Origin: a virus
DNA: 64,000 bases
Direction: 5' to 3' (one strand)
Virus record (IMG/VR): IMGVR_UViG_3300046167_000032
Span: 1-64,000 of that record
Numbering within the stretch: position 1 is the stretch's first letter; every line of letters begins with the position of its first letter. Below, piece by piece: positions 1 to 64,000 of the stretch. Below the pieces are notes generated by a model that worked only from the letters and a program-made list of their open reading frames with translations, ran no database searches and was not told the DNA's origin. Position numbers and translations under genes: made by a program.

Positions 1-209
1 TCTGGGTCTTTTACTGTAGTATATCTATAGAGTAATCCATTTATATCTACACCACCAATACTAGGTAAGATAGAATCCATAGACCAACCTAATGCACCTG
101 ATGCCGCATTACCTGTAGCTCCATACGTATATGGTTCAGAGTAGGAGTAAGAAGGCAAGAGTACTAAAGATAACACCCAAGCCAATCTTAGTTTCACTGT
201 TCTCATCAA
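1..209 (-). CDS. 5' part of secreted protein (allele of 53904-54776), truncated by window edge
   Basis: Nucleotide match to 54568-54776. Confidence 0.85.
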   Translation of the reverse strand, partial: MMRTVKLRLAWVLSLVLLPSYSYSEPYTYGATGNAASGALGWSMDSILPSIGGVDINGLLYRYTTVKDP

Positions 210-693
210 ACATCTTTCTGATTACATTATTTTGATCTCGTTCGATCTCATCTTTAACTGCTTCCATATCCCATGCTAGTCTAGCTTGATCACCAACTAA
301 TCCATCTTTAGGACATGGTGTACCTGCATTCATCATAGCATCGAACACTCTTTCGTCTTGACACATTACTGATACTGCGGCTACCTTCATGCCCATGTCA
401 TACATAGTCTTAGCATTCTTGAGCTTCTCACAGTTCATGTCACGTACTGTACGACCTGCTGAGATACCTAGTATCTGTGTCTGTACCGCCCCTGCTACAC
501 CTACAGTACATAAGTCAGAGTTACTTGCACTTATCTGTGGAGATATGGCTGATGGTGGTGGGCTATTGATTGTAGTATCCATAGACCCATTAGATGTTAT
601 AGTACTGTTTGTATCAGTATATATTGTGTCATCATCATTGGCATATACAGTACTGCCAATTAGTAGGGTAAGTAATATAAGTAAGAGTTTCAT
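136..693 (-). CDS. Secreted Cys-containing protein with C-terminal membrane anchor (copy A)
   Basis: Sec-type signal MKLLLILLTLLIGSTVYA, 4 Cys, hydrophobic C-terminus; allele at 54703-55257. Confidence 0.8.
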   Translation of the reverse strand: MKLLLILLTLLIGSTVYANDDDTIYTDTNSTITSNGSMDTTINSPPPSAISPQISASNSDLCTVGVAGAVQTQILGISAGRTVRDMNCEKLKNAKTMYDMGMKVAAVSVMCQDERVFDAMMNAGTPCPKDGLVGDQARLAWDMEAVKDEIERDQNNVIRKMFDENSETKIGLGVIFSTLAFLLLL

Positions 694-956
694 TTATTAT
701 CTTGTTCTGCCATTCTCTCTACTAGGTTACGAATAGCTTTAATGTTTTCATCAATACGACCTAGAGAGACAGCTTGCATTTGTACTGTTTTCTCTAGTGT
801 ATTTATACGAGTTTCTTGACGAACTAAATCACGAGCATTATTTTTGACGGAAGAGTCTAATGAAGACACATACCATACAAGTGATATAGTTTGTAGTACG
901 ATAGCTACGATTAACGTAACTGGTACTGACTTAGAAAGATGCCAACTCTCGGTCAT
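690..956 (-). CDS. Single-TM coiled-coil membrane protein (copy A)
   Basis: TM segment VPVTLIVAIVLQTISLVWYV followed by a heptad-rich tail; identical protein at 55254-55520. Confidence 0.8.
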   Translation of the reverse strand: MTESWHLSKSVPVTLIVAIVLQTISLVWYVSSLDSSVKNNARDLVRQETRINTLEKTVQMQAVSLGRIDENIKAIRNLVERMAEQDNK

Positions 957-976
957 GGTTTAATATAATCCCCTCA

Positions 977-3334
977 TTAAGATATTCTGACCCATATTCC
1001 ACCCGGATATCGACCACTGATATTTGTAGTCATACTTGACATAAACCGCCAAGTACCTGAAGGTGCGCTTTCGACACCATGCCATACACCACCATTTACA
1101 GAACGTTCATTACCGTCTCCGCCAGTGTTCCAACCTAAACCTGCAGGTCTTAAAGTAGAGCCAGCTTTTGTAGCACCGCCCGAAATAGTTCCGTTATTCT
1201 GCAAATGATATCCAAATATATAAGTACCAACAGCACCATAAGATGTACTACCGCCAACACCTGTTAGGTTAGAGCCATCGCCTGTGTATGACGTTGCGGC
1301 TACTGTGCCTGTTACTGTGACACCACTTGATGTTGTTTCAAGTTTCTTAGAACCATTATGGTATAAGTCACACGAGCCATTTCTCTTAAATGCAGCAATA
1401 ATTTCGGAAAAATCACCGTTTGCAATCGTTAACCCACTCCCACTCATGGGCATGTTAAGCCAACCAGAGGTTAATGCATGTTTTATATAAGAGTTACTAC
1501 CATCATGGTAAATCTCTAAATCGTCATGTGTTCCGCAAATTAACTTATCGTTATCTGTTAAATTTACTCCGCCATTAAAAGATGCACCAGCATTGAAATA
1601 AGCACGACCTGCATTTGACATATCAAGGGTAAGGGCTGTGATAGTTGAACCACCATCGTTACCCATAAAGACTATATCTTTATCTTGCTGTCCTGCAACA
1701 AGTCTAAAATCATTAGCTCCTGAATTCTGCAAGAAACCTATGTTAGTTCCACCATCTTTAAAATAAATACCTCCACCATCAGCATCAAGGGTAATGTTTC
1801 CTGCAACGTCTAGTGTTAGGTCGCCAGATGGACTAGCTATAGAGCCATCTAAGTAGAAGTCTTTAAAACGGCGGCTTGTACTCCCTAAATCAACAGTATT
1901 ATTTGATGTAGTGCCATAATTGTTAGTTGGTATGATATTGCCATATCCGAAAGACAAACCAACATGATTTGTAGTTGATGAATGTATTACAAGGTCATCA
2001 GATTTAGTCCCAATACTACCTACAGTTGCGCCGTCTTTGCGGAAGTCTACAATATCACCATCGTTTGTTTGTCTATTAAAAAAAGCAACTTGCCCACCGC
2101 TTCTTGCAACGGATAAGGTAGTAGGAGAAATCTGAATGCCCTGAACACTACTAGAAGATGCAACACCTGCAGTAGTAGTACCCACCAACACGTTGCCTGA
2201 TGAGTCTATGCGCATACGTTCTGTAGATCCACCTGTACCAAGAATGGTATGTGTACCCACTGCGCCTATAAAAGCACCTCCCGAAGAACCACTATCTTTT
2301 ATAACAATATATGCGTTTGCATCACCACTGCTTTGAAAAGTAGCTACTGTATCTACTGTACCTGAGTCCACAGTCAGCCCATCGCTGGTCACTGTGCCTG
2401 TTACATCAATGCCTAAATCTGTTGTCTCAAAGCGTTTACTGTCATTATAATTAAGCTGTACTTTACCGCCTTCAGTAAACATAGCATAAGTTGCGTTAAC
2501 TGCACTATTAACAAATCGCATATTAGATGCGCCGCCAATGTATAAATCACCATTGCCGTTTTCTATTATTTTACTATCGTTACCATCATGGTAAATCTGT
2601 AAATCAGACCCAGCACCAAACTTAGCTTTGACGTTATCATTATACAGTACATCGCCTGTCATTGTGCCACCAGCTAAAGGTAACTTAGTAGCCAATGCTG
2701 TTGTGAGTGTAGAGTTATAATTAGCATCATCATTGATAGCCGCCGCTAACTCATTCAAGTCATTGAGTGTACTAGGTGCGCCACCAATAAGTGTTGTAAT
2801 TTTATCTGTAACGTAAGCTGTTGTAGCTACTTTAGTACTATCATCAGACTCAGCTTGTGTAGTTGCTGTAGTAGTAGATGCTATAGCACCACTAAGTGTA
2901 CCGCTAAGTGAACCACTGATAGTACCTGTAGCTGTTATGTTACGGAAGCCTGTTATATCTTTGTTTGTATTGACTACGACAGCTTTAGATGCTGATACTG
3001 TACCTGCAGTAATACCATCAATACTCTCTAAGTCATTCTCATTAATATCAGCACTACCTATTACAAAGCTACCACCTGTTATAGCACCTGTAGTTGTTAT
3101 AGTAGATGAGCCATTGTCTATATTACCAAAGCCTGACGTTATGCTACCACTATTCAATGCACCTGTAGAGGTTATGTTAGTTGTAGTGATACCATCGACG
3201 TATGCTTTGATAGACTGCTGACTAGCTATACCAGTAGCAGAGTCACTAGCAAGATTATCCTCATCAAGGAAGCTCTTACCATCTAAGATGTTTATCTCTT
3301 GAGCACTATCTGCTAAGTCTCTTGCCTTACTCAT
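977..3334 (-). CDS. Tail fibre 2 (allele A)
   Basis: APSTLNDLNELAAAINDD and GGTMTG fibre motifs, ERMRIDSSG repeat, C-terminal GTWR..M...WVRIS tip domain. Confidence 0.88.
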   Translation of the reverse strand: MSKARDLADSAQEINILDGKSFLDEDNLASDSATGIASQQSIKAYVDGITTTNITSTGALNSGSITSGFGNIDNGSSTITTTGAITGGSFVIGSADINENDLESIDGITAGTVSASKAVVVNTNKDITGFRNITATGTISGSLSGTLSGAIASTTTATTQAESDDSTKVATTAYVTDKITTLIGGAPSTLNDLNELAAAINDDANYNSTLTTALATKLPLAGGTMTGDVLYNDNVKAKFGAGSDLQIYHDGNDSKIIENGNGDLYIGGASNMRFVNSAVNATYAMFTEGGKVQLNYNDSKRFETTDLGIDVTGTVTSDGLTVDSGTVDTVATFQSSGDANAYIVIKDSGSSGGAFIGAVGTHTILGTGGSTERMRIDSSGNVLVGTTTAGVASSSSVQGIQISPTTLSVARSGGQVAFFNRQTNDGDIVDFRKDGATVGSIGTKSDDLVIHSSTTNHVGLSFGYGNIIPTNNYGTTSNNTVDLGSTSRRFKDFYLDGSIASPSGDLTLDVAGNITLDADGGGIYFKDGGTNIGFLQNSGANDFRLVAGQQDKDIVFMGNDGGSTITALTLDMSNAGRAYFNAGASFNGGVNLTDNDKLICGTHDDLEIYHDGSNSYIKHALTSGWLNMPMSGSGLTIANGDFSEIIAAFKRNGSCDLYHNGSKKLETTSSGVTVTGTVAATSYTGDGSNLTGVGGSTSYGAVGTYIFGYHLQNNGTISGGATKAGSTLRPAGLGWNTGGDGNERSVNGGVWHGVESAPSGTWRFMSSMTTNISGRYPGGIWVRIS

Positions 3335-3345
3335 ATTTTATATCC

Positions 3346-3762
3346 TTATGTTGGCTTTGTAGGCCATGTTACTGTATTCGGAAAACCTGCTTGATCTGGT
3401 AGGTTTAGCAAGTCAGTTCGGTATTGTGTCCACTCTGCTTGTTTAACATCTGTAAGTTCAGCCCAACGTAGAGGGTTAGTTACTATAGGGTCTACTTCTT
3501 CTACTAACCTTTGGTCACGCTGACCTCTTAGGTTTGCCGCTAGTTCTGCATCTAGCTCTGCTTGAGTAGGTGCTACATAAGCCGCATAGTCTGAACCGAT
3601 AAGTTCAAGCAATACGCTGTTGTCTACAGTATTATCTGTATCATCAGGCATTAATGAATAAGGTATCCAATCAAACTCTGGATGGTTAATTTCTAGTTCA
3701 AATGCAGTATTCTCTGCGTTTAATGATTGTGCGTTACGCACTTCTGTTATTGTTATTGTCAT
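3346..3762 (-). CDS. Tail fibre assembly chaperone-like protein
   Basis: C-terminal W..YR..LL.LP.QAGFP..V.WPTKP motif; start MTITITE has an AAGGA RBS. Confidence 0.8.
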   Translation of the reverse strand: MTITITEVRNAQSLNAENTAFELEINHPEFDWIPYSLMPDDTDNTVDNSVLLELIGSDYAAYVAPTQAELDAELAANLRGQRDQRLVEEVDPIVTNPLRWAELTDVKQAEWTQYRTDLLNLPDQAGFPNTVTWPTKPT

Positions 3763-3773
3763 TTTTATTTCCT

Positions 3774-6700
3774 TTACGATATTCTGACCCAAAGTGTTGG
3801 TGCTCTTACACCAAACTGCGCACCTGTAGCCGTACCGCCCATGTTTCTCCATGTACCTGAAAGACCACAACTTGCTGCACCATTAAAATCTGTAGCTAAT
3901 GGTCGTTGGTGTGTAGAGCTATAGTAATCTGTTACAAGCGTATTACCTGCCGCAGTAGCCCCAGCCGCTATAGATGTGCTGTTACTATTAGACGTAGCAC
4001 CTACAGTATAAGTACCAACATCGCCACGGGTTGTACTACCTCCAACACCTGTTAGGTTAGAGCCATCGCCGTAATATGTTACAGCGTGTACTTCTTTAAA
4101 ACGACCTCCTGTATAACCAAGCTTAACAGCATTATCTCTTGTTGCTCCAACTTCTGTCGAAGGAAACACTAGGTCGTCAGTAGCAAAGAAACCTAAACCT
4201 GTATCTCCCTGCCCAACACCAAGTGAACCACTGGTAACACCAATACTACCTACATCTGCCCCGCCTTTGCGGAGTTGTATAATAGTGCCATCATTAGTAA
4301 GTCTATCAAAGAAAGCCGCCGCACCACTTGCTCGTCTTGCTTGCACAAAACCTGCTTGACCTATTGTAACAGCATTTTGTGAGCCTTGTAATGTAGAGCC
4401 AATTACAACATAGCCATTTGAGTCTATGCGCATACGTTCTGATGCTGAAGTGCTAAAATGCATATGGTCATCAGAGTGGTCGTAGGTAATAATACCTCTA
4501 TTTGGTGCATTTCCAGTTGTTCCATCAGCAAAATGTATTGAACCATTACTAGCAGTACCAGTTCTAATGGTCATACCAAAATCTCCACCACTATTACCAA
4601 TAACTAAATCATCAGCAGCAGTGTTAAAATCTCCCGGTGTATCTTGTGCTATACCAACTCGCCCTGACGAGTCGATGCGCATACGTTCTGTGTTGTTAGT
4701 GCCTAGTATTAAGTGGCTGTTTGACCTGTTAAACATCCCAACGCCAGTGCCTGAGTAAAGTTCCATCGTGTCTGCTGAGGTTGCGTCTAACCAGATACGT
4801 GCATCGGAAGTGTCTGCAACGTGCAAATCAGCAATAGCGTTAGGTGAACTCGTCCCAATACCAACATTACCTGATGCGTCTATGCGCATGGCTTCTGTGC
4901 CGTTAGGTCTAAACACAATAGGATTGTTGTCTGTGTGTAACAACAAGTCATTAGCTGAATAACTACCAGATATAGAAGCCCCATCACCAACGTAAACTTC
5001 TGTGTTATAACGGGTAAAACCACTGAGGTAGAGGTCTTTCCAACGTACATTTGATGCACCTAAATTTACATTTGCATCGTTAAAAGCACCAGAGTTTGTC
5101 GCTGGGAGTAGAGCATCGGTAATTTTAATACCTTTACCAGATGTGCCGTGAGAACCAATATAAGGGTATGAGCCATTAGCACCAATACTACCTACAGTTG
5201 TGTTGTCTTTTCGGAACTGTGCAATAGTGCCATCAGAAGTTGTTCTGTTAAGGGTTAAAGGTTGTGCAGACGCACGAGTTGATATTAAATCTCCGTTTGG
5301 ACGCATTTCTGCGCCTACAGTAGAAGCTCCTACAGCACTCGTCTTACCCACCAACAAGTTACCTGATGAGTCTATACGCATGGCTTCTGTGTTGTTTGTT
5401 CGTAAAATTAAGGGTTGGTTAGTTTTAGAACCTACAAATGTACCTGTGTTGTCTGCATACAAACGCCCATATGCTGTTGTTACATCTCCAAAATCAATAG
5501 TACCATTTGAACCACTATCCACAGTCAGCCCAGTAGTTGTAAGCGCACCCGTCATTGTACCACCAGCTAGTGGTAGTTTAGTAGCAATAGAGTTTGTTAT
5601 AGTAGTACTAAATGATGCATCATCGTTTAAAGCTGCGGCTAACTCATTAAGTGTATCAAGAGAACCCGGTGAGCTATCTACAAGGTTAGCAATAGCTGTG
5701 TCTGTATAAGCTTTGATAGACTGTTGTGTGGCTAGTGCTGTTGCACTGTTAGATGCCATGTTATCTTCATCAAGTATGTTTGTAATAGACACAGAGCCTG
5801 TACCAGATAAACTATCAAACTCAACTGATCCACCAACGTCTAAGTTACCTGTCATAGTACCGCCAGATAAGTTTAGTTTTTCTGTATCATTAGCTAATGG
5901 AATCCAGTTACCTGCATGTGCGAAGTAACCTTTACCTGTTGCATGAACATGAGCAAACATACCGTGATAAGTTGATGCACTTGGTAGGTCTGATAATTGA
6001 GAATATACGTTACCGAATAAAACTTTATTGCCGTTACCATCAATGTCACCTGTCATAGTGCCACCAGCTAGACCTAAGAACCTAGCATCTGCCGCAGTCT
6101 TACTGTAGTGATCTGCAAGTTGGAATGTACCATAACCTACGATGTCAATAATATCACCAGCAGTAGCACCTGCACTTAGTACTACAGTAGAACCACTTGT
6201 AGCTGTTACGTCTGTACCAACTAAAAGTTTTACACCATTAAGATATACATCTACATAGCCTACATCATATGTTGCAGAGAACGTAGTCTGTCCTGATGTA
6301 GCAGTATATGTGTTACGACCAGATGTACCATTAACTGATGAACCTGCCGCTTGCCAACCACCCGATCCACTACGAACAAACATAATGTTACTTGTAGTGT
6401 TAAAATACAATGCACCTGCTATTAAAGCGTCACCGTCATTGTCTACTGAAGGAGCAGATGATTTAGCACCTAAGTATCTGTCGTCAAAGTCATCATAAGA
6501 ATTAGCGGCATTAGTAGCACTGGTAGCCGCAGCTGTTGCTGAGTTAGCTGAGTTTGTAGCTGATGTTGCCGCATTGGTAGCTGAAGTAGCCGCTTGAGTA
6601 GCACTTGCCGCCGCCGCAGTATTAGAACCTGCGATACTATCAACATAAGTTTTTGTAGCCGCATCAGTATTAGCAGTAGGTGTACCTAATCCAGTAATCT

Positions 6701-8385
6701 TATTGCCACCCATAGCTATAGCAGATGCCATAGTACCACCTGATTTTAGTAAGGCAGTTGTGTCAACGTAGTTCTTAGTAGCACCATCTTGGTTAGCAGT
6801 AGGATCACCTAGTCCAGTTATCTTACTTGTACCCATAGCTATAGCACCAGACATAGTGCCGCCTGATAAGTTTAACTTAGTAGCATCTTGTGCATCTACA
6901 TAACCTTTACGAGATAGCTCATCATTTGTTGCAGGGTTAGCTGTAGATGTTACAGCATTAGTACCCATTACAATGTCACCAGTTAGTGTTCCACCTGCAA
7001 GAGGTAACTTAGTAGCTATAGAATTAGTAATAGTAGTTGAGAAGTTTGCATCGTCATTGATTGCCGCAGCTAACTCGTTAAGAGTGTTTAGTGCATCAGG
7101 AGATGAGTCAACTAAAGCAGATACCTCAGTGTCTACATATCCCTTAGTAGCGGCATCTGTTGAAGCACTTGGAGCACCTAAGCCTGTTACTTTACTACCG
7201 CCCATAGCAATAGCACCTGACATAGTTCCACCAGACAGGTTAAGCTTTAGTGCATCTGCAGTATCTACATAGTTCTTTGTAGCCGCATCTTGAGCACTGG
7301 TTGGATCAGTAACATTAGCAATAGTTGTACCTGTAACATCTAGTGTACCGTTTACAGTTACATTGTTAAATGTAGATAAACCTGACCCTGCAGTTACATT
7401 ACCTGTTACATTGCCTGTAAGATTACCAGTAACGTTACCTGTGATATTACCTGTTACGTTACCTGTAAGTGGGCCTACAAGACTTGAACCTGTAATTGTT
7501 GTACCTGTGATTGCGGCTGTAGAAGAAGCACCAATAATAGTACCATCAATATTACCACCGTTTATATCTACAGTAGCTAACGTAGCCTGACCAGATGTAG
7601 AGACTGTAGTAAAGCTACCAGCAACGGCTGTTGATGCACCTATAACTGTATTGTCTATGTTACCTGCATTAATGTCTACAGTAGTTAGTGTTGATGTTCC
7701 TGTAGCAGTTAGGTCTGTCACAGTAGCAGGTGAAGCTGATGAAGCACCAATAGTTGTACCATCAATAGCACCTGCATTAATGTCCACAGTAGCCAGAGTA
7801 GCAGTTCCTGTAGCACTCAGTGTAGTAAATGAGCCAGCACCTGCAGTTGTACCACCTATAGGTTACGTTATCTATAGCACCAGAGTTAATGTCTACAGAA
7901 GTAATAACACCTGTAGTAATATTAGCTGTGCTTAGAGTAGTTGTTCCAGTAACACCTAATGTACTTCCTATAGTAAACGTACCTGCAACTGCACCATTAA
8001 TATCTACATCTAGTGTATCTATGTGTGCTGTACCATCTAAGTATAAATCTTTAAACTCTAAACCAGATGTACCTAAGTCTATATCATTAGTTATTACAGG
8101 TATAATAGCCCCATCAGAGAAGCGTATTTGTTCTACTGCGGCTGAAGATACCTCTACAAAGACACCTACTTGATTAGTAGCAGTGTTTATGACAACTTTG
8201 TTTAGTGCGTCAACATCACCAATAAGAGGAATGTAACCACCTTCTCCTATTGATCCATCGTGTTTGTGTCCACTTGACACTGCAAATGCATCACGGAGTT
8301 TGTTGTACTCGGCGTTAATAGGTGCTGCACGAAGTGTAGCTGTTGGTATTATGTCTGCTGAAGACTGTCTTACGTAACCTGCCAA
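3774..8385 (-). CDS. Tail fibre 1 (allele A), split by one extra base at about 7861
   Basis: ORFs 7777-8412 and 3774-7787 join into the protein that is intact at 59035-63813. Copy A reads ACCTATAGGTTACG and copy B reads ACCTATAGTTACG. TTG start at 8385 follows AGGAG. Confidence 0.88.
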
Positions 8386-8389
8386 AGTA

Positions 8390-10642: not shown

Positions 10643-10662
10643 ATTAATTCCTACTGTTACAG

Positions 10663-10690: not shown

Positions 10691-10705
10691 CTACAGTATT
10701 TTATA

Positions 10706-16540: not shown

Positions 16541-16759
16541 TTATTTGTGTTTTAATACTTCGTCACGTAATAATTTTATTCTACGTAATTGAAAGATCGC
16601 ACCTTGTGCTCGGTATATGATCTTATCATTGTCAGCTTGTTCCATAGTTCTGTGCTGTTGAGCTATTAGAGAATCTATATAACTATTGAACTGTTCCCAT
16701 TGCTGGTGGTTGCTGACCATTGCCTTGAGCTTGCTCAGGTGCTCCTTGTCCTTCTGCAT
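16541..16759 (-). CDS. Small protein downstream of portal
   Basis: IYRAQG motif typical of small genes following podovirus portals. Confidence 0.6.
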   Translation of the reverse strand: MQKDKEHLSKLKAMVSNHQQWEQFNSYIDSLIAQQHRTMEQADNDKIIYRAQGAIFQLRRIKLLRDEVLKHK

Positions 16760-23908: not shown

Positions 23909-24716
23909 TAGTTAATTGCACAAAGTCCTCGCCTAAGAAGGCGATTTCTATGTACGTACATACCTCATTGCTATTGCTTATCACTGTACATGTATACTTA
24001 TATGTTTATATAGTTTAAGTATTATATAATTATAAGTATATATCATAGTACATGTATACTGTACGTGTATCACTTATAGTGACCCTACCCGGAATATACT
24101 ATATACATAGTTTTACACACTCTGTACCCCATGTCAACCCCTAATCGTACATTGGTAACAAACTGTGATGATATTGTAATATATTGTAACATATAGTGAT
24201 AGTATTTTGTGATCACAAATATACCCTGCACGTATACATAACACCATATCTGTATAGTGGTTAACACTCTCATATTTCTGATCTGTGTAATTGTACATAT
24301 CATACTAACGTACACCCCCCGTATGCCCCCTGCCCACCCTAGCTTGAGGTCGTTTGCGTGCGCCCACAGGCACATGTACACGCATGGTGAGAGCATAATG
24401 CATAGGCACATACACCACACACGAGGAATATTCCACAATAACAATCACTTATAGTGATATGACAACTGTTATACAATCAGTTGCCTTCACATATGGTGCA
24501 AGCATAGGCATGCTACGAGCAAGTGACGTGTGTTGCGCAGTTGATGCACATATACACCCACCCATAGGCATGACCTACACATCACGTGCATCACACGCTC
24601 GGCTGCCTACACGTATACGCATGCGCACTCGCACTGAGAGCTGATTCGTTTTGCCCTCCAAAAAGTGATTCGTTTTTACCCTAACAAGTCCCACATTGGA
24701 CTTAATTTGCTCCATA
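23909..24716. other. Non-coding divergence region; candidate genome-end, packaging or origin region
   Basis: No credible gene; alternating purine-pyrimidine tracts, short direct repeats and palindromes; lies between divergent transcription units. Confidence 0.5.
24108..24137 (-). promoter_or_regulatory. Leftward promoter
   Basis: TTGACA-N16-TAAAACTA. Confidence 0.6.
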
Positions 24717-24784
24717 TACTACTACGTAGTAAAATAGGTGTTGACACCATCGGATTTATCTGATCTAACTGATTGCATCGAAAC
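24717..24784 (+). promoter_or_regulatory. Early promoter element 1
   Basis: TACTACTACGTAGTAAAATAG-N3-TTGACA-N9-TTATCTGAT-N10-GCATCGnAAC; duplicated at 26707. Confidence 0.7.
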
Positions 24785-24818
24785 GGCGAACTTGCCAAAC
24801 TCAAAAAGGAAAAATCTT

Positions 24819-53895: not shown

Positions 53896-53903
53896 TGTAT
53901 TCC

Positions 53904-54776: not shown

Positions 54777-55257
54777 ACATCTTTCTGATTACATCGTTTT
54801 GATCTCGTTCGATCTCATCTTTAACTGCTTCCATATCCCATGCTAGTCTAGCTTGATCACCAACTAATCCATCTTTAGGGCATGGTGTACCTGCATTCAT
54901 CATAGCATCAAACACTCTTTCGTCTTGACACATTACTGATACTGCGGCTACCTTCATGCCCATGTCATACATAGTCTTAGCATTCTTGAGCTTCTCACAG
55001 TTCATGTCACGTACTGTACGACCTGCTGAGATACCTAGTATCTGTGTCTGTACTGCCCCTGCTACACCTACAGTACATAAGTCAGAGTTACTTGCACTTA
55101 TCTGTGGAGATATAGCCGATGGTGGTGGGCTATTGATTGTAGTATCCATAGAACCATTTGAAGTTATAGTACTATTAGTGTCAGTCTTTATAACATCATC
55201 ATCGGCATGTGCAATACTACCGATTAGTAGGGTAAATAGTATAAGTAAGAGTTTCAT
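54703..55257 (-). CDS. Secreted Cys-containing protein with C-terminal anchor (copy B)
   Basis: Allele of 136-693. Confidence 0.8.
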   Translation of the reverse strand: MKLLLILFTLLIGSIAHADDDVIKTDTNSTITSNGSMDTTINSPPPSAISPQISASNSDLCTVGVAGAVQTQILGISAGRTVRDMNCEKLKNAKTMYDMGMKVAAVSVMCQDERVFDAMMNAGTPCPKDGLVGDQARLAWDMEAVKDEIERDQNDVIRKMFDENSETKIGLGVIFSTLAFLLLL

Positions 55258-55520
55258 TTATTATCTTGTTCTGCCATTCTCTCTACTAGGTTACGAATAG
55301 CTTTAATGTTTTCATCAATACGTCCTAGAGAGACAGCTTGCATTTGTACTGTCTTCTCTAGTGTATTTATACGAGTTTCTTGGCGAACTAAATCACGAGC
55401 ATTATTTTTGACGGAAGAGTCTAATGAAGACACATACCATACAAGTGATATAGTTTGTAGTACGATAGCTACGATTAACGTAACTGGTACTGACTTAGAA
55501 AGATGCCAACTCTCAGTCAT
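55254..55520 (-). CDS. Single-TM coiled-coil protein (copy B)
   Basis: Same protein as 690-956, synonymous SNPs only. Confidence 0.8.
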   Translation of the reverse strand: MTESWHLSKSVPVTLIVAIVLQTISLVWYVSSLDSSVKNNARDLVRQETRINTLEKTVQMQAVSLGRIDENIKAIRNLVERMAEQDNK

Positions 55521-55533
55521 GGTTTAGTATTCC

Positions 55534-55761
55534 TTATTCTGGTTTAGTAGGCCATGTTATATTATTTGGGAAGCCATCTTGATCTGTAACGTCCAAAAGA
55601 GCTTGGCGATAATTTTTCCATGCAGTCTTCTGTTCATCAGATTTTGCTTCCCATTCAATAAATCTGCTAGGCATTGGGTCAACTTCAGTTTCTAAAAGTT
55701 GATCTCTTATTAACCTAACGGCGCTTTCCATTTGCTCTACTGAGTGTTCTTCACTAGACAT
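55534..55761 (-). CDS. Tail fibre assembly chaperone-like protein
   Basis: WKNYRQALLDVTDQDGFPNNITWPTKP. Confidence 0.8.
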   Translation of the reverse strand: MSSEEHSVEQMESAVRLIRDQLLETEVDPMPSRFIEWEAKSDEQKTAWKNYRQALLDVTDQDGFPNNITWPTKPE

Positions 55762-55780
55762 TTTTAATACCTTTTTTTAA

Positions 55781-57718
55781 TTAAAGTGGGATTATAGCTA
55801 ATTGCATTGAGGAATCATACCATTGAAGATAGCCTTGGTTTTGAGTTTCATGTTCCCCAGCCGTAACTCTAATTTTCTGACCTGAAGAAAGATATGCACT
55901 ACTCCAACTGCCAAACGGATTACTGATACTGCCTGTACTTGAGCTAGGAGAACCGCCATAAAACGGATTTGTGCTATTAACGACATTACCATTAACATAT
56001 ACTCTATATGAGTAGCCATAATAACCACCTGTTGAAGTATAATACCTATATTTTAGTAGGGCACTTATCGCAAATACAAGACAATCAGAAGTTGCAGTAT
56101 ATTCCAGCAAATACTGACCAGCATTGTATTTTTCTAAAGCACCCTTGTCGTCATTATATGCCGCATTATTACCAGAAGTTATTGTAACAACGCTCGCTCC
56201 ACCAGCAGGGTCTGTCCATTGAGCAGTACCAGCAGATGCGTATGTAAGCAGTTGGTTTGCAGAACCGCCACTAGGGATGTGATTGTTACCATTACCTGTT
56301 GGGTGTGTGTAGTTATTAGCACTTGTTGCTATGCCATCAAGCTTAGAACCATCTGATGCTACATCACGTCCGTCTACTGTACCTGATACAGCTATATTGC
56401 CTGTTACGTCAACTCCGCTTGATGTTGTTTCAATTTTCTTTGAATTGTCGTAACGTAGATTTACAGCACCATCCTTACTAGCACCTATATAAACTTCACC
56501 TGATGAACTACCAATCTCAACATAATTATCATCTTGTATATACATATTACCAGTAGTATTAGTAACAAATGTATGTGAACCATTGTGATAAATCTGTAGG
56601 TCATCAGCATTACCAAATCTAGCTTTCTCATTATCTCCAAAGCTAATTGAGTGACCATTGACATCTAAAGCTCCACCTAGTTGTGGTGTAGTGTCACTCA
56701 CAATGTCTGTGCTTAGATTATCAAATGATGTTTTAAACGCTGCTATGTCTACACCATCTACTGTACCTGATACTGCAACGTTGCCTGTTACTGATATGCC
56801 TGTTGATGTTGTGGCTAGTTTAAGGTTGTTGTCGTAGTAAAGTTTTACTGCGCCATCTTTTATAAACTCAGACATTTTTCCGTTTGCGCCGCTACCATCA
56901 CTTACTAACTGTATCATTGAACCGTTAGTATCTATAGATAGTATGCCATCCCCCACATCTTCTATGTATGAGTTATTACCGTCATGGTATATTCTAAAAT
57001 CAGACCCAGCACCGAATATGGCTTTGTCGTTGTCACCGAATGACAAGTCACCTGTCATTGTGCCACCAGCTTTTGGTAACTTGGTAGCCAATGCTGTTGT
57101 GAGTGTAGAATTATAGTTAGCATCATCATTGATAGCCGCAGCTAACTCATTCAAATCATTGAGTGTGCTTGGTGCGCCACCTATAAGTGTTGTAATCTTA
57201 TCTGTAACGTAAGCTGTTGTAGCTACCTTAGTACTATCATCAGACTCAGCTTGTGTTGTTGCTGTAGTAGTAGATGATAGAGAACCGCTAAGTGTACCAC
57301 TGATAGTACCTGTAGCTGTTATGTTACGGAAACCTGTTATATCTTTGTTTGTATTGACTACGACAGCTTTAGATGCTGATACTGTACCTGCAGTAATACC
57401 ATCAATGCTCTCTAAGTCATTCTCATTAATATCAGCACTACCTATTACAAAGCTACCGCCTGAGATAGCACCTGTAGTTGTTATAGTAGATGAGCCGTTG
57501 TCTATATTACCAAAGCCTGACGTTATGCTACCACTATTCAATGAACCTGTAGAGGTGATGTTAGTTGTAGTGATACCATCGACGTATGCTTTGATAGACT
57601 GCTGACTAGCAATACCAGTAGCAGAGTCACTAGCAAGATTATCCTCATCAAGGAAGCTCTTACCATCTAAGATGTTTATCTCTTGAGCACTATCTGCTAA
57701 GTCTCTTGCCTTACTCAT
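55781..57718 (-). CDS. Tail fibre 2 (allele B)
   Basis: First ~220 aa nearly identical to 977-3334; different C-terminal part. Confidence 0.88.
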   Translation of the reverse strand: MSKARDLADSAQEINILDGKSFLDEDNLASDSATGIASQQSIKAYVDGITTTNITSTGSLNSGSITSGFGNIDNGSSTITTTGAISGGSFVIGSADINENDLESIDGITAGTVSASKAVVVNTNKDITGFRNITATGTISGTLSGSLSSTTTATTQAESDDSTKVATTAYVTDKITTLIGGAPSTLNDLNELAAAINDDANYNSTLTTALATKLPKAGGTMTGDLSFGDNDKAIFGAGSDFRIYHDGNNSYIEDVGDGILSIDTNGSMIQLVSDGSGANGKMSEFIKDGAVKLYYDNNLKLATTSTGISVTGNVAVSGTVDGVDIAAFKTSFDNLSTDIVSDTTPQLGGALDVNGHSISFGDNEKARFGNADDLQIYHNGSHTFVTNTTGNMYIQDDNYVEIGSSSGEVYIGASKDGAVNLRYDNSKKIETTSSGVDVTGNIAVSGTVDGRDVASDGSKLDGIATSANNYTHPTGNGNNHIPSGGSANQLLTYASAGTAQWTDPAGGASVVTITSGNNAAYNDDKGALEKYNAGQYLLEYTATSDCLVFAISALLKYRYYTSTGGYYGYSYRVYVNGNVVNSTNPFYGGSPSSSTGSISNPFGSWSSAYLSSGQKIRVTAGEHETQNQGYLQWYDSSMQLAIIPL

Positions 57719-57737
57719 GTTTGATCTCCTATGTAAA

Positions 57738-58046
57738 TCATTCTTCTACTAACATCCAAGATGTAATATCTTCATTCCAAATATATTTGTTTTCTATATC
57801 AGGTATTTCTACTGGTGCATTCCATTGACAAGTAGTTTCGTTTAATACCCATGAAGGGTATGGTTTTGGGTGTATAAAAGCGTCTCTAGTGCTATCGTAA
57901 GTACCACCTACACTAGCATAATTTTTTCTTATGTTGCTATTGTATGAGGTTTGTACCCACGTACCTTCAAGCTCACTAATATAATCTTCATCAGCAACAA
58001 TTACCTCTACAACTGTGCCTTCTATAATCTTTGCGTAATGTGCCAT
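57738..58046 (-). CDS. Small partner of glycine-rich fibre-tip protein
   Basis: MAHYAKI...WVQTSYN..IRKNYA..G.TYD..RDAFI.PKPYPSW.L.E.TC.W.AP. Confidence 0.7.
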   Translation of the reverse strand: MAHYAKIIEGTVVEVIVADEDYISELEGTWVQTSYNSNIRKNYASVGGTYDSTRDAFIHPKPYPSWVLNETTCQWNAPVEIPDIENKYIWNEDITSWMLVEE

Positions 58047-58059
58047 ATTTTATTTACCT

Positions 58060-59031
58060 TTAAGAGATAGCGTATCTAACAATAACAATTCCAGAACCGC
58101 CACCGCCACCATATCTAGTGCCATCGTAACCAAGAGATCGGCCACCACCGCCACCTCCACCTGTGTTAGCAGAAGCTGAAGGGGCATAGGGTTGGCTTCC
58201 ACTAGCACCATTTGCACCGCCACCAGACCCACCAGAACCACCTGAGTAATCCCAAGCACCACCACCTCCGCCACCAGCGTAGTAAGTTCCATTTAGCCAC
58301 TGAGAACCATTACCTCCAGCAGTACCATTAGAGCTACCATAACCTGTTTGATTAGTCCCAGATTGACTTGCGCCTCCACCGCCAGCACCAGCAGAATAAT
58401 AGCTGTTAGTTCTATTACCTCCACTATTACCTTGACCTGAAGTTCCTGAACCACCTGATTTATTATCTGGCCCACCTGATGCTCCACCACCAGAACCCCC
58501 AGAGTTACCATTATAGCCTTCACCACCACCGCCACCGCCGCCAGTTGAGGTCAAACCAAAGCCAGAACTGTTAGAACCATTGCTACCTGATGATAAATAA
58601 CCACCGCCGTTACCGCCAGCACCTATAGTAATACTATATCCTTGAGCAGAAGAGTTAGCAGAACCTGTCCTGTACCCTCCAGCACCACCACCGCCGCCGT
58701 GGGCTGTACCACCGCCTCCACCACCAGCTACTACAAGATACTGTAAAGTGTTTGAACCTGCGGCATTTCCAATAGAGCTGACAGTAAATGTACCTGACGA
58801 AGTAAAGACATGATATTTATAACCACCAGAAGTAGATGTTGTACCACCAGAGGCTGAAATATACTGTGCATTAGCCTTACCATGACCTTGAGACATAGCA
58901 ATTTGACCATCAGCATCATCAAATAGAGTTCTTACAGCACTGTCATTCATGGTGATTTGTGCTGTACCACTTAGGCCAAGCTCTACATTTACGTCATTTA
59001 AAGATATCTGTCCGCTAGATGGTAACGTCAT
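58060..59031 (-). CDS. Glycine-rich putative adhesin / fibre-tip protein
   Basis: MTLPSSGQISLNDVNVELG attachment-type N-terminus, many polyglycine runs, GGGGSGIVIVRY end. Confidence 0.75.
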   Translation of the reverse strand: MTLPSSGQISLNDVNVELGLSGTAQITMNDSAVRTLFDDADGQIAMSQGHGKANAQYISASGGTTSTSGGYKYHVFTSSGTFTVSSIGNAAGSNTLQYLVVAGGGGGGTAHGGGGGAGGYRTGSANSSAQGYSITIGAGGNGGGYLSSGSNGSNSSGFGLTSTGGGGGGGEGYNGNSGGSGGGASGGPDNKSGGSGTSGQGNSGGNRTNSYYSAGAGGGGASQSGTNQTGYGSSNGTAGGNGSQWLNGTYYAGGGGGGAWDYSGGSGGSGGGANGASGSQPYAPSASANTGGGGGGGRSLGYDGTRYGGGGGSGIVIVRYAIS

Positions 59032-59034
59032 GTG

Positions 59035-62000
59035 TTATCTCGCCTTTAGTTCTTCGATTTCAGCTTTAAGTTCTTTGATTGCTTCAATCATTAATCCATG
59101 AAGTTGATCATACTGCACTGTCTTGTATTCAGTCTCATCATCTTCACCCATCTTGAGAGGTAATGTACTTTCAGTAATTGCACTTGGCATTACCTTCTCG
59201 ACTTCTTGGGCGATAACACCAGCAGACTTTTTGCCATCGGCTAGGTATTCAAATGTGTAACCATTTAGCTGTGATACTTTATCTAAGGCATTGTCTATCT
59301 TCACGATGTCTTTCTTTAGACGCTCATCAGAGACTGTTGTAGAATAAGCAACAACGTTACCTTCAACGTGTAGGTCGCCATCATTCTCAAGGCGCATGTC
59401 TTCTGCACCATCTAAATACCACTTGTGAGTTGTCGTTCCAACAAGGTAGTAATCGTTAGTGTCACGACCCATGTAGAAAATCTCACCACGACAGTCGCCG
59501 CCGTTGATTGTGCCTGTTACTGTGACACCGCTTGATGTTGTTTCAAATTTCTTGGAGTTGTTGTGGTATAGCTCTACTGCTCCATTCGGTATAGCTTTAA
59601 TCATATTTTCGGATGCAGTTTTAATCTGGATTGGGTGGTCATTTACAGCAACAATCTGATTGAAGCCGCCAGCATCATGGTAAATCTTTAAATCATGTGA
59701 GTTACCAACTCTTAATTCTTTGTTATCTGCTAATTCAATGTGAGAACCAAATGTAGCAATCCCACCTTCAGACATATCAAGTGTGAGGGCTGTAATACCA
59801 GAACCGCCATCATTGCCTTTAAATACAATGTCTCCGTCTTGTTCCCCAGACCTTAACACAAAATTACTAGAAGCCTTTTCAACTACTCCGTAAATAGTTC
59901 CAGCGTCTTGAAAATAAACTGTACCACTATTATCAGCATCAAGTTTTATAACTCCTGCAACATCTAAGGTTAGGTCGCCGTTATCTGCAAAAATCCTACC
60001 GTTTGTTCCATCGCTGTTTATGGATAAATCTGCCCCTGCTCCCATCTTGACATAAGCGCCATCAGGAAAAGTTGCATCGTGATTAAAGATTGCTGTACCA
60101 GCATCAGACATATCAAGACGAAGGGCTTCTCTCTCTACGCCACCATCATTACCTCTAAAAATAATGTCTTTGTCTTCGATTATAGATTTAAAAACTGCAT
60201 CTTCACCATTCCTTCTAATACTTGCAAAGTGTAATCCACCATCCTTAAAAATGATATCAGCACCATCCGCATCAAGAATAATCTCCCCTGCGGAATCTAG
60301 TGTTAGGTCGCCAGATGGACTAGCTATAGAGCCATCTAAGTAGAAGTCTTTAAAACGGCGGCTTGTACTCCCTAGATCAACAGTATTATTTGATGTAGTA
60401 CCATAATTGTTAGTTGGTATGACACTGCCAGATGCGAAAGACAAACCAACATGATTTGTAGTTGATGAATATATTACAAGGTCATCAGATTTAGTCCCAA
60501 TATTACCTACAGTTGTGCTGTCTTTGCGGAAGTTGAGTATGTCGCCATCAGAGTTTAGCCTTCCAAAATATCCTGATGTCTGACCATCAGCCACAGCGGC
60601 TATTGCATCAAGGTCTGACCTAAGTTTTATACCTTGACTTACTGTTGCTTGGCTAGTAGTACCCACCAACAAGTTGCCTGATGAGTCTATACGCATTGTC
60701 TCCCCCGACCCACCAACATTTGTAAAAACAAGAGGTGCGGCAGAAGATGATGAGGTAGCAGTTCCACTTTGAATATAATTTACGCCGCCTGTGCTAACAA
60801 GCCGCATGGCAGAGTTACTGCTGGAAATATACTGCTCACCAGCGGTTGAGTTATAAACGTGCAAACCCCCACTAGGCGAACTCGTCCCAATACCAACTCG
60901 GCCTGACGAATCTAATGTCATAGCAGTGCTTGATGCATTATCATCAATACCTGTAGATTCAAAACCTGCAATAGTACCAGTCATAGTACCACCAGCTAGT
61001 GGTAGTTTAGTAGCAATAGAGTTTGTTATAGTAGTACTAAATGATGCATCATCGTTTAAAGCTGCGGCTAACTCATTAAGTGTATTAAGAGAACCCGGTG
61101 AGCTATCTACAAGGTTAGCAATAGCTGTGTCTGTATAAGCTTTGATAGACTGTTGTGTGGCTAGTGCTGTTGCACTGTTAGATGCCATATTATCTTCATC
61201 AAGTATGTTTGTAATAGACACAGAGCCTGTACCAGATAAACTATCAAACTCAACCGATCCACCAACGTCTAAGTTACCTGTCATAGTACCGCCAGATAAG
61301 TTTAGTTTTTCTGTATCATTAGCTAATGGAATCCAGTTACCTGCATGTGCGAAGTAACCTTTACCTGTTGCATGAACGTGAGCAAACATACCGTGATAAG
61401 TTGATGCACTTGGTAAGTCTGATAATTGAGAATATACGTTACCGAATAGAACTTTATTGCCGTTACCATCAATGTCACCTGTCATAGTGCCACCAGCTAG
61501 ACCTAAGAACCTAGCATCAGATGCTGTCTTACTATAGTGATCTGCAAGTTGGAATGTACCGTAACCTACGATGTCAATAATATCACCAGCAGTAGCACCT
61601 GCACTTAGTACTACAGTAGAACCGCTTGTAGCTGTTACGTCTGTACCGACTAAAAGTTTTACACCATTAAGATATACATCTACGTAGCCTACATCATATG
61701 TTGCAGAGAATGTAGTCTGTCCTGATGTAGCAGTATATGTGTTACGACCAGATGTACCATTAACTGATGAACCTGCCGCTTGCCAACCACCTGATCCACT
61801 ACGAACAAACATAATGTTACTTGTAGTGTTAAAATACAATGCACCTGCTATTAAAGCGTCACCATCATTGTCTACTGAAGGAGCAGATGATTTAGCACCT
61901 AAGTATCTGTCGTCAAAGTCATCATAAGAATTAGCGGCATTAGTAGCACTGGTAGCCGCAGCTGTTGCTGAGTTAGCTGAGTTTGTAGCTGATGTTGCCG

Positions 62001-63813
62001 CTTGAGTAGCTGAAGTAGCCGCTTGAGTAGCACTTGCCGCCGCCGCTGTATTAGAACCTGCGATACTATCAACATACAGTTTTGTTGCCGCATCAGTATT
62101 AACAGTAGGTGTACCTAATCCAGTAATCTTATTGCCACCCATAGCTATAGCAGATGCCATAGTACCACCTGATTTTAGTAAGGCAGTTGTGTCAACGTAG
62201 TTCTTAGTAGCACCATCTTGATTAGCAGTAGGATCACCTAGTCCAGTTATCTTACTTGTACCCATAGCTATAGCACCAGACATAGTGCCACCTGATAAGT
62301 TTAACTTAGTAGCATCTTGTGCATCTACATAACCTTTACGAGATAGCTCATCATTTGTTGCAGGGTTAGCTGTAGATGTTACAGCGTTAGTACCCATTAC
62401 AATGTCACCTGTTAGTGTTCCACCAGCTAGAGGTAACTTAGTAGCTATAGAATTAGTAATAGTAGTTGAGAAGTTTGCATCGTCATTGATTGCCGCAGCT
62501 AACTCGTTAAGAGTATTTAGGGCATCAGGAGATGAGTCAACTAAAGCAGACACCTCAGTGTCTACATATCCCTTAGTAGCGGCATCTGTTGAAGCACTTG
62601 GAGCACCTAAGCCTGTTACTTTACTACCGCCCATAGCAATAGCACCTGACATAGTTCCACCAGACAAGTTAAGCTTTAGTGCATCTGCAGTATCTACATA
62701 GTTCTTTGTAGCCGCATCTTGAGCACTGGTTGGATCAGTAACATTAGCAATAGTTGTACCTGTAACATCTAGTGTACCGTTTACAGTTACATTGTTAAAT
62801 GTAGATAAACCTGACCCTGCAGTTACATTACCCGTCACATTGCCTGTAAGATTACCAGTAACGTTACCTGTGATATTGCCTATTACGTTACCTGTAAGTG
62901 GGCCTACAAGACTTGAACCTGTAATTGTTGTACCTGTGATTGCGGCTGTAGAAGAAGCACCAATAATAGTACCATCAATATTACCACCGTTTATATCTAC
63001 AGTAGCTAACGTAGCCTGACCAGATGTAGAGACTGTAGTAAAGCTACCAGCAACGGCTGTTGATGCACCTATAACTGTATTGTCTATATTACCTGCATTA
63101 ATGTCTACAGTAGTTAATGTTGATGTTCCTGTAGCTGTTAGGTCTGTCACAGTAGCAGGTGAAGCTGATGAAGCACCAATAGTTGTACCATCAATAGAAC
63201 CTGCATTAATATCTACAGTAGCAAGAGTAGAAGTACCTGTAGCACTTAGTGTAGTAAATGAACCAGCACCAGCAGTTGTACCACCTATAGTTACGTTATC
63301 TATAGCACCAGAGTTTATGTCTACAGAAGTAATAACACCTGTAGTTATATTAGCTGTGCTTAGGGTAGTTGTTCCAGTAACACCTAATGTACTTCCTATA
63401 GTAAACGTACCTGCAACTGCACCATTAATATCTACATCTAGTGTATCTATGTGTGCTGTACCATCTAAGTATAAATCTTTAAACTCTAAACCAGATGTAC
63501 CTAAGTCTATATCATTAGTTATTACAGGTATAATAGCCCCATCAGAGAAGCGTATTTGTTCTACTGCGGCTGAAGATACCTCTACAAAGACACCTACTTG
63601 ATTAGTAGCAGTGTTTATGACGACTTTGTTTAGTGCGTCAACATCACCGATAAGAGGAATGTAACCACCTTCTCCTGTTGAGCCATCGTGCTTGTGTCCA
63701 CTTGATACAGCGAATGCATCACGGAGTTTGTTATACTCGGCGTTAATAGGCGCTGCACGAACTGTAGCTGTTGGTATTATGTCTGCTGAAGACTGTCTTA
63801 CGTAACCTGCCAA
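59035..63813 (-). CDS. Tail fibre 1 (allele B) with C-terminal peptidase S74 intramolecular chaperone
   Basis: SDERLKKDI...GVIAQEVEKVMP...IEAIKEL; N-terminal ~945 aa shared with allele A. Confidence 0.92.
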   Translation of the reverse strand: MAGYVRQSSADIIPTATVRAAPINAEYNKLRDAFAVSSGHKHDGSTGEGGYIPLIGDVDALNKVVINTATNQVGVFVEVSSAAVEQIRFSDGAIIPVITNDIDLGTSGLEFKDLYLDGTAHIDTLDVDINGAVAGTFTIGSTLGVTGTTTLSTANITTGVITSVDINSGAIDNVTIGGTTAGAGSFTTLSATGTSTLATVDINAGSIDGTTIGASSASPATVTDLTATGTSTLTTVDINAGNIDNTVIGASTAVAGSFTTVSTSGQATLATVDINGGNIDGTIIGASSTAAITGTTITGSSLVGPLTGNVIGNITGNVTGNLTGNVTGNVTAGSGLSTFNNVTVNGTLDVTGTTIANVTDPTSAQDAATKNYVDTADALKLNLSGGTMSGAIAMGGSKVTGLGAPSASTDAATKGYVDTEVSALVDSSPDALNTLNELAAAINDDANFSTTITNSIATKLPLAGGTLTGDIVMGTNAVTSTANPATNDELSRKGYVDAQDATKLNLSGGTMSGAIAMGTSKITGLGDPTANQDGATKNYVDTTALLKSGGTMASAIAMGGNKITGLGTPTVNTDAATKLYVDSIAGSNTAAAASATQAATSATQAATSATNSANSATAAATSATNAANSYDDFDDRYLGAKSSAPSVDNDGDALIAGALYFNTTSNIMFVRSGSGGWQAAGSSVNGTSGRNTYTATSGQTTFSATYDVGYVDVYLNGVKLLVGTDVTATSGSTVVLSAGATAGDIIDIVGYGTFQLADHYSKTASDARFLGLAGGTMTGDIDGNGNKVLFGNVYSQLSDLPSASTYHGMFAHVHATGKGYFAHAGNWIPLANDTEKLNLSGGTMTGNLDVGGSVEFDSLSGTGSVSITNILDEDNMASNSATALATQQSIKAYTDTAIANLVDSSPGSLNTLNELAAALNDDASFSTTITNSIATKLPLAGGTMTGTIAGFESTGIDDNASSTAMTLDSSGRVGIGTSSPSGGLHVYNSTAGEQYISSSNSAMRLVSTGGVNYIQSGTATSSSSAAPLVFTNVGGSGETMRIDSSGNLLVGTTSQATVSQGIKLRSDLDAIAAVADGQTSGYFGRLNSDGDILNFRKDSTTVGNIGTKSDDLVIYSSTTNHVGLSFASGSVIPTNNYGTTSNNTVDLGSTSRRFKDFYLDGSIASPSGDLTLDSAGEIILDADGADIIFKDGGLHFASIRRNGEDAVFKSIIEDKDIIFRGNDGGVEREALRLDMSDAGTAIFNHDATFPDGAYVKMGAGADLSINSDGTNGRIFADNGDLTLDVAGVIKLDADNSGTVYFQDAGTIYGVVEKASSNFVLRSGEQDGDIVFKGNDGGSGITALTLDMSEGGIATFGSHIELADNKELRVGNSHDLKIYHDAGGFNQIVAVNDHPIQIKTASENMIKAIPNGAVELYHNNSKKFETTSSGVTVTGTINGGDCRGEIFYMGRDTNDYYLVGTTTHKWYLDGAEDMRLENDGDLHVEGNVVAYSTTVSDERLKKDIVKIDNALDKVSQLNGYTFEYLADGKKSAGVIAQEVEKVMPSAITESTLPLKMGEDDETEYKTVQYDQLHGLMIEAIKELKAEIEELKAR

Positions 63814-63817
63814 AGTA

Positions 63818-64000
63818 TTATCTCCTGTCGGCTGTCTCATACGTCAAGGCTACTGCCTGTATAGTATGACTTGCATTTGTATTATTCGTAACATAACTTA
63901 TTGAAACAGAGTTACCTGATCCAGATATATTTGTAAGTGTTTTAGGTGAGGGATTACCATCATATATACCACCTGCTCCATATATAGCTGTACCATAAAT
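63818..64000 (-). CDS. 3' end of tail tubular protein B (copy B), truncated by window edge
   Basis: Matches 8390-8572 with two SNPs. Confidence 0.9.
   Translation of the reverse strand: MYGTAIYGAGGIYDGNPSPKTLTNISGSGNSVSISYVTNNTNASHTIQAVALTYETADRR

Follow-up and report, generated by a model that had tools for sequence, protein, structure and literature searches.

A virus record of 80.4 kb probably over-runs the genome circle of an HMO-2011-type marine podovirus and passes from one strain to another

The virus record analysed here is a single contig of 80,374 bp, whose first 64 kb form the stretch of DNA under study (the window, 64,000 nucleotides). From its sequence, the 80.4-kb record is probably an in silico over-run of a circular map, with the join between strains made by software. 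The starting material would have been a population of one marine podovirus of the HMO-2011 type, made up of several strains and having a circular map of about 54.6–55.2 kb, and in tiling its reads or contigs an assembler may have gone round this map about 1.47 times. The second lap would have taken a different strain (its conserved blocks 4–5% diverged, its fibre cassettes swapped), and because of this divergence the overlap would have gone unrecognised and extension would have gone on. The only biology in the record is then the variation between strains, the join being most likely a product of software.

A direct repeat with a period of one genome

Across the whole record, positions 1–25159 recur as 54568–80374 in direct orientation (self-BLAST, MAFFT alignment), with a period of 54,567–55,215 bp. 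The 2 arms, of 25,159 and 25,807 bp, amount to about 31% of the contig, and the record spans about 1.47 units (147%) of a genome circle of about 54.6–55.2 kb. The initial annotation had recognised the same locus at 1–8572 and 54568–64000, and this holds, the repeat being larger than first noted. BLAST of the window ends aligns 1–966 with 54568–55530 (95.5% identity), 2580–3351 with 56976–57734 (91.5%), and 5547–8572 with 60976–64000 (97.6%), with unrelated sequence substituted between the copies at 978–2580 and 3330–5547.

In the first copy of the repeated arc (copy A, 1–25159), the minus strand encodes the late virion functions, with genes for fibres, tail, capsid, a 1112-aa protein, portal, terminase, and lysis, as delimited by self-BLAST, MAFFT, and synteny with phage CRP-345. 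The same arc recurs as copy B, which occupies 54568–64000 in the window and continues past it to the last position of the record, 80374 (self-BLAST, MAFFT). Between them lies a single-copy arc (25160–54567). Its plus strand has early and replication genes at 24.7–44 kb; the minus-strand genes, at 44.1–54.6 kb, are of the internal or ejection type. The region from 8.6 to 54.5 kb is collinear with CRP-345 and with a single-unit relative described below.

No host genes flank or separate the units anywhere in the 80-kb record. The earlier observation that no host DNA lies between the copies is thus borne out, the 8.6–54.5 kb region being free of host genes and tRNA, and the check for host genes beyond the window that it called for, run to the record end at 80,374, found none. 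ARAGORN, which searches for whole tRNA genes, detected none. A search for adapter or vector scars returned a single 13-mer inside the DNA polymerase gene, which we take as chance.

Identity of the phage

Gene content and order place the phage among the HMO-2011-type marine podoviruses, as a relative of CRP-345 and CRP-1. The DNA polymerase, portal, capsid, and small and large terminase genes that are hallmarks of this type are present (Pfam), and 66 CRP-345 frames match in the same order. With the Roseobacter RCA phages CRP-345 and CRP-1 and the SAR116 phage HMO-2011, the record shares gene order in both transcription arms, a family A DNA polymerase that may contain a DnaJ-like insert (CXXCXGXG), a primase, a DnaB-type helicase, a B12-type ribonucleotide reductase, an integrase upstream of the replication genes, the portal, and the terminase. 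The DNA polymerase of HMO-2011-type phages contains a partial DnaJ (CXXCXGXG) domain between its exonuclease and polymerase domains (PMC6918029), and in the record PF00684 matches polymerase residues 287–327 between these 2 domains with E = 0.001, under Pfam's cut-off. Nucleotide identity to HMO-2011-type phages is 72–78% over conserved genes. The record has fibre cassettes of its own and a C5 methyltransferase gene for which our comparisons gave no match in CRP-345. The phage is a species-level lineage distinct from the HMO-2011-type isolates compared.

Genomes of the cultured relatives measure 53.8–56.2 kb, and the repeat period equals one such genome. The single-unit relative, IMG/VR record IMGVR_UViG_3300049737_000029, is 54,899 bp long and 98–99% identical, and its portal protein is 100% identical to that of the record. 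Identity to this relative is 97–98% for the single-copy arc and likewise 97–98% for copy B, versus 94–95% for copy A, a hint that the single-copy arc may go with copy B.

Divergence between the copies

Conserved blocks of copy A and copy B are 95–96% identical. Among 15 shared ORFs, 387 differences are synonymous and 92 non-synonymous (pN/pS 0.07), and the portal (16683–18833, minus strand) and large terminase (18844–20424, minus strand) proteins, assigned by Pfam and ORF comparison, are unchanged between the copies despite 44 synonymous differences. Indels between the copies include an in-frame 12-bp indel at 2900, one of 24 bp at 24201, and one of 199 bp at 21596. The initial annotation had described mostly synonymous SNPs, whole gene replacements, and small in-frame indels; the first 2 stand as described, while several indels of 1 bp are not in frame. 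The divergence between the copies is genuine evolutionary divergence between strains.

Three fibre or internal-protein cassettes, all on the minus strand, have been exchanged. The first (978–2580) is the distal part of the fibre gene at 977–3334, and its copy B partner at 55531–56975 is about 50% identical to it, which amounts to unalignable. The second (3330–5547) comprises the distal part of a large fibre gene and small ORFs, with its partner at 57714–60975, and the third (13203–15723) lies within the gene for the 1112-aa protein (13191–16529), with its partner at 68632–70810, beyond the window. This strain variation is real, and contigs from other samples show it too: B-type alleles of the first cassette occur in contigs L100 and L108, and the third cassette is A-type in contig L003 and B-type in the single-unit relative. 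Other samples combine the cassettes differently, and since alleles are shuffled among samples in this way, the strains do recombine. The suggestion that the record itself captures the substrate on which host-range cassettes are exchanged finds no support, real as the cassette variation is.

Tandem SNP alleles mark a mixed-strain consensus

The record carries 6 private single-base insertions, each absent from all of the 14–35 relatives available per site. Five came from scanning every stretch for which 2 or more relatives were available, where each private 1-bp indel proved to be an insertion, and the sixth, at 7862, was confirmed separately. Five of the 6 (7862, 24300, 29098, 29505, and 31885) fall on common biallelic SNPs and place both alleles side by side. 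A random insertion would mimic such allele doubling with a probability of 0.083, so that 4 doublings out of 6 have a binomial p of about 6e-4, and 5 out of 6 about 2e-5, the latter worked by hand.

The genes interrupted are the methyltransferase (twice), the integrase, and the copy A fibre gene. In the fibre gene, the extra base at 7861..7862 (minus strand) splits the frame into 7777–8412 and 3774–7787, while its copy B counterpart is intact as a single 1601-aa ORF (59035–63840); relatives read TATGG (20) or TATAG (11) at this site, and the record reads TATAGG. The extra base at 24299..24300 lies in copy A, in the region from which the early and late modules diverge, where the population alleles are CATGC, CATGT, and CATAT and the record has CATATC, a form as long as which is found in none of 30 relatives. 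The C-5 cytosine DNA methyltransferase gene (28953–30058, plus strand, PF00145) is one frame of 367–371 aa in relatives and is cut into 3 frames here by extra bases at positions 29098 and 29505, both of which fall on a G/A SNP whose 2 alleles are retained; PF00145 matches consecutive parts of its profile in 29065–29520 and 29513–30058. The tyrosine integrase gene (31500–32622, plus strand, PF00589) is broken at 31885, where relatives read GAGGAG (15) or GAAGAG (20) and the record GAAGGAG, an insertion that none of the 35 carries.

The presence of both alleles of common SNPs in tandem at 5 sites marks the record as a mixed-haplotype consensus. Judged by this signature, it is a consensus called on mixed-strain reads and not a single molecule, which answers the question, raised in the initial annotation, of whether it represents one long read. 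Because the record holds sequence absent from every related strain, an alignment-based consensus is likely, whether from long-read assembly or from overlap merging of contigs. A single blended overlap zone at 24.3–32 kb, as would be left by 2 merged contigs, was considered and is weakened by the doubling at 7862. The substitutions are under strong purifying selection while the insertions break conserved genes, which argues for consensus error and not gene decay, and the frame break in the integrase is probably such an error.

Origin of the join

Several properties of the record are those of contigs described in the CheckV paper, in which duplications span 20% or more of the length and which are ascribed there to assemblers concatenating genome copies (PMC8116208). 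The duplicated share here lies above that value, and the direct repeat, the one-genome period, the lack of host DNA, and the status of a stand-alone virus record are common to both. Unlike those contigs, the laps of this record are different strains, 4–5% diverged in conserved blocks, with swapped cassettes and allele-doubling errors. Within the same phage group, the single-unit relative self-closes through a 203-bp overlap with one mismatch, and the MAG contig NZIV01000047.1 (62.8 kb) overlaps itself over 5.7 kb at 99.6%. These 2 imperfect self-overlaps, of a kind met at contig ends of circular or permuted phage genomes, show that wrap-round with non-identical ends recurs in assemblies of this group, the overlap in the present record being, by comparison, 25 kb long and far more diverged. 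Short-read metagenome contigs of the locus are mostly fragments of 1–5 kb, as expected for a microdiverse population, and a metagenome scan for same-population contigs that would phase the arcs returned only such fragments.

A de Bruijn bubble model, in which copy A, a collapsed single-copy arc, and copy B are strung together, is excluded by the lack of k-sized identical ends, as mismatches between the copies begin at base 21 and stop 12 bases short of the end. A simple de Bruijn unitig artefact is likewise excluded: the copies match exactly over 52 stretches of 100 bp or more, up to 513 bp in length, and a unitig assembler would pass through such stretches only once. As to where the strains meet, a join at 23.9–24.7 kb had been proposed; both copies are collinear with relatives there and no scar is visible, so the proposal is not supported. 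Comparison with relatives cannot place the switch from sequence alone, since alleles are shuffled among samples and, at 27–32.4 kb, alleles that differ from the single-unit relative interleave without clean tracts.

The join could instead be physical. Replication via concatemers is to be expected in podoviruses of this type, and head-to-tail replication or recombination intermediates of co-infecting strains might have joined strain A to strain B, or a chimera might have formed in vitro by amplification or ligation, to be caught by long-read sequencing. Collinearity with the unit map throughout, without a scar, agrees with such an origin, as do the recombination implied by shuffled alleles and contig ends that look arbitrary, like read ends. 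Several observations make it unlikely nonetheless: the record blends at least 2 haplotypes at 5 sites between 7.9 and 31.9 kb, a raw 80-kb read would hold far more indels than the 6 found, no adapter was detected, and 147% of a unit would be no packaged genome, judging from genomes of 54–56 kb. Polishing a long single read with mixed-population reads could also yield allele doubling, and it is a slim prospect that a real long molecule lies beneath such polishing, namely a replicative concatemer from co-infection with the virion arm of strain A joined head-to-tail to a strain B genome. If true, it would be a direct snapshot of a fibre-cassette exchange intermediate in an abundant marine phage group.

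A tandem double lysogen, with 2 related prophages at one att site and the contig broken inside both, is very improbable. The tyrosine integrase gene is compatible with lysogeny, and the geometry fits if attP lies beyond 25.8 kb, the integrase being at 31.5 kb. CRP-3, a more distant member of the group, integrates into a tRNA-Met gene (PMC6918029); for CRP-1, the closest isolate examined, integration has not been demonstrated. Against lysogeny, the record stands by itself as a virus record, its 80 kb contain not a single host base, and it lacks a tRNA gene (ARAGORN). A search of 185,579 species genomes with the integrase and portal sequences themselves yielded no integrase relatives, and the portal relatives all lay on MAG contigs, from several phyla unrelated to each other. 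A real 80-kb genome with a diverged 25-kb internal duplication of the virion module is extremely improbable, its one point in favour being that the deposited sequence reads so: every relative has a full genome exactly one period long, the duplication would add a second portal, terminase, and capsid set, and capsids of this group would presumably hold 54–56 kb. The initial annotation had offered a mixed concatemer or recombinant, a tandem double lysogen, and an assembly or ligation chimera as readings of the record; its head-to-tail join of 2 strains without host DNA stands, and the evidence favours the assembly chimera.

Implications

The record is chiefly a caution: it should be taken neither for a genome of 80 kb nor for a tandem prophage or an intermediate of recombination, and its split methyltransferase, integrase, and copy A fibre genes should not be taken for pseudogenes. 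Adjacent SNP alleles that break well-conserved genes are a simple marker of mixed-strain consensus, readable from sequence and applicable to other records. For the phage itself, the 2 laps represent 2 naturally co-occurring haplotypes, which have identical portal and terminase proteins and have exchanged fibre and internal-protein cassettes.

Genome repeat and divergence of its copies

The virus record IMGVR_UViG_3300046167_000032, a single contig of 80,374 bp whose initial 64 kb form the window, is an HMO-2011-type marine podovirus. Megablast found 72% to 78% identity to the Roseobacter RCA phages CRP-345 (54.7 kb) and CRP-1 (54.0 kb) over the replication genes, portal, and terminase, and the two-arm gene order is the same as in CRP-345, gene for gene. 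Pfam searches identified a family A DNA polymerase, a DnaB-type helicase, a B12-type ribonucleotide reductase, an SU10-type portal, a large terminase, a tyrosine integrase, and, in the early arm, a C5 DNA methyltransferase (28953–30058), for which the comparisons made yielded no matching CRP-345 reading frame.

The initial annotation, made from sequence alone, had described both window ends as one locus, and BLAST bears this out in three blocks separated by unalignable sequence: 1–966 with 54568–55530 (95.5% identity), 2580–3351 with 56976–57734 (91.5%), and 5547–8572 with 60976–64000 (97.6%). In the full record the repeat is far longer, pairing 1–25159 (copy A) with 54568–80374 (copy B), and its period is exactly one genome, 54,567 bp on copy A or 55,215 bp on copy B. 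The two copies differ in mosaic fashion: they are 97% to 100% identical across the portal, terminase, and lysis genes (16.6–23.9 kb), 82% to 97% identical across the tail and capsid genes (9–13 kb), and unalignable at 978–2580, 3330–5547, and 13.2–15.7 kb. In the 15 ORFs common to both copies, 387 differences are synonymous and 92 non-synonymous (pN/pS 0.07), in agreement with the mostly synonymous changes noted earlier; neither the portal nor the large terminase protein differs at all. The divergence is therefore evolutionary and not read noise.

Copy A also has 24 bp (24201–24224) that are missing from copy B. They contain the palindrome TTTGTGATCACAAA, which is placed in the interval separating the early arm from the divergent late arm and may be an operator-like site of one strain only.

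Doubled alleles and broken genes

The record was aligned to all related contigs of at least 90% identity, and indels were retained if their length was not a multiple of three, their flanks were clean, and most relatives supported them. Five survived, each a 1-bp insertion in the record, and a sixth was confirmed once more relatives were added. At 7862, in the copy A fibre gene, relatives read TATGG (20) or TATAG (11) and the record TATAGG; at 24300, between the early and late modules of copy A, relatives read CATGC, CATGT, or CATAT (30 in all) and the record CATATC. Within the methyltransferase, CCTGAC (5) or CCTAAC (9) is replaced by CCTGAAC at 29098, and GAGGAT (12) or GAAGAT (6) by GAAGGAT at 29505; in the integrase, GAGGAG (15) or GAAGAG (20) is replaced by GAAGGAG at 31885. 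At 80093, in copy B, 23/23 relatives read GAGCTAC and the record GAGACTAC. In five of these six cases the record juxtaposes the two alleles of a SNP common in the population, a form found in none of the relatives. Random insertion would double an allele with a probability of 0.083 per site; the chance of doubling is about 6e-4 for four of six sites and about 2e-5 for five of six (same binomial, by hand).

All relatives have intact versions of the genes that these private insertions disrupt. The methyltransferase, a single frame of 367–371 aa in the related contigs L086, L089, and L083, falls into three frames, two of which match consecutive parts of the PF00145 profile (Pfam), and the integrase frame is split at 31885. 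The large fibre gene is a single long frame in 31 related contigs and one 1601-aa frame in copy B (59035–63840); its appearance as two genes in copy A (7777–8412 and 3774–7787) is due solely to the base inserted at 7862. Gene decay is not the explanation, since the frameshifts fall at SNP positions and the genes are otherwise under strong purifying selection. We infer instead, from how alignment-based consensus works, that they are the output of a consensus caller presented with two haplotypes. Assembly from a k-mer graph of accurate reads could not yield a word absent from every read.

Whether the record is one long read or a consensus, a point raised by the initial annotation, is answered by the doubled alleles at five sites: it is a mixed-population consensus, with blending at sites between 7.9 and 31.9 kb, and therefore cannot stand as one molecule joining strain A to strain B. 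From the earlier proposal of two strains head to tail, the repeat and the strain differences are retained, and a linking molecule becomes unlikely. The three-piece methyltransferase (28953–30058) is a consensus artefact and gives no grounds for a pseudogene annotation, and the fibre gene structure should be taken from copy B. A patch of about 200 bp within the methyltransferase (29540–29740) is 82% to 84% identical to all close relatives, with flanks at 95% to 100%, and may be a private allele or locally blended consensus. Alleles that differ from the single-unit relative G001 are interleaved across 27–32.4 kb, which may likewise reflect blending or a natural haplotype.

Origin of the join

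Most likely the join arose during assembly, as an over-run from one of two co-occurring strains into the other, and does not belong to any real molecule. In the simplest account, an assembler tiling round the circular map would meet its own start on the second lap and follow a different strain there, one too diverged for the overlap to be recognised, so that extension would continue for another 25 kb. The CheckV paper reports duplications spanning at least 20% of the contig in thousands of cases, and explains them by assemblers having concatenated copies of a genome (PMC8116208). Similar imperfect wrap-rounds occur within the same phage group. The ends of G001 (IMGVR_UViG_3300049737_000029; 54,899 bp, IMG/VR) overlap by 203 bp (1–203, 54697–54899) with one mismatch, and it therefore represents a single turn of a circular map that closes imperfectly; those of NZIV01000047.1, a 62.8-kb phage contig in a MAG, overlap by 5.7 kb at 99.6%. 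G001 is classed as linear although its ends overlap; probably it is complete, at about 54.7 kb, and was overlooked by exact-repeat detection. NZIV01000047.1 and NZIV01000030.1 (55.4 kb), both HMO-2011-type and 99.7% to 99.8% identical, come from the same Neomarinimicrobiota MAG.

A unitig-type short-read assembler is ruled out because the record ends away from k-mer bubble edges and the two laps have identical stretches in common, the longest 513 bp; either a long-read consensus or the merging of overlapping contigs would be compatible with the record. The initial annotation had proposed 23.9–24.7 kb as a plausible site of the join; over that region copy A, copy B, and relatives are all collinear, and there is no scar.

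A physical mixed concatemer, formed in vivo or in vitro, is improbable, as the sequence is demonstrably not single-molecule, 147% of a unit is too long for a packaged genome, and far more than six indels would be expected in a raw 80-kb read. Still less credence attaches to a tandem double lysogen, which has nothing positive in its favour. The record contains no host genes, tRNA genes, or adapters, in line with the earlier statement that no host DNA lies between the copies; no integrase relative was found among 185,579 species genomes; portal relatives are confined to MAG contigs from several unrelated phyla; and integration has been shown only for CRP-3, a more distant group member (PMC6918029). 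That the genome truly spans 80 kb and is internally duplicated is very improbable, given a repeat period of one full genome. Besides the Neomarinimicrobiota MAG, those with portal relatives are labelled Flavobacteriales, Bacteroidetes, Gammaproteobacteria, Pelagibacter, and others, which looks like phage contigs having been mis-binned.

Allele exchange among related phages

G001 is 98% to 99% identical to copy B and 97% to 98% identical to the single-copy arc; against copy A, wherever the two copies diverge, it is 94% to 95% identical. The early arm has a sharp recombination boundary at its start: in its first gene (24738–25430), the 5′ segment 24817–25067 is only 66% identical to G001, versus 98% to 100% for the record from 25.3 kb onwards. 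About 199 bp at 21596, between lysis-region ORFs, are present in copy B (76687–76885), G001, and the related contig L003 and absent from copy A and L084, making this insertion polymorphic in the population.

A-type and B-type alleles occur in other combinations in contigs from other samples. L003 combines the A-type cassette at 13.2–15 kb with the insertion that copy B has at 21.6 kb; the alleles of G001 are B-type at 15.7–16.6 and 21.6 kb and A-type at 23.9 kb; and L108 carries a B-type fibre cassette on a backbone slightly nearer copy A (98.2%) than copy B (97.5%). Because these contigs mix the two allele types, both haplotypes are natural and the population recombines; the strain-level cassette variation is real.
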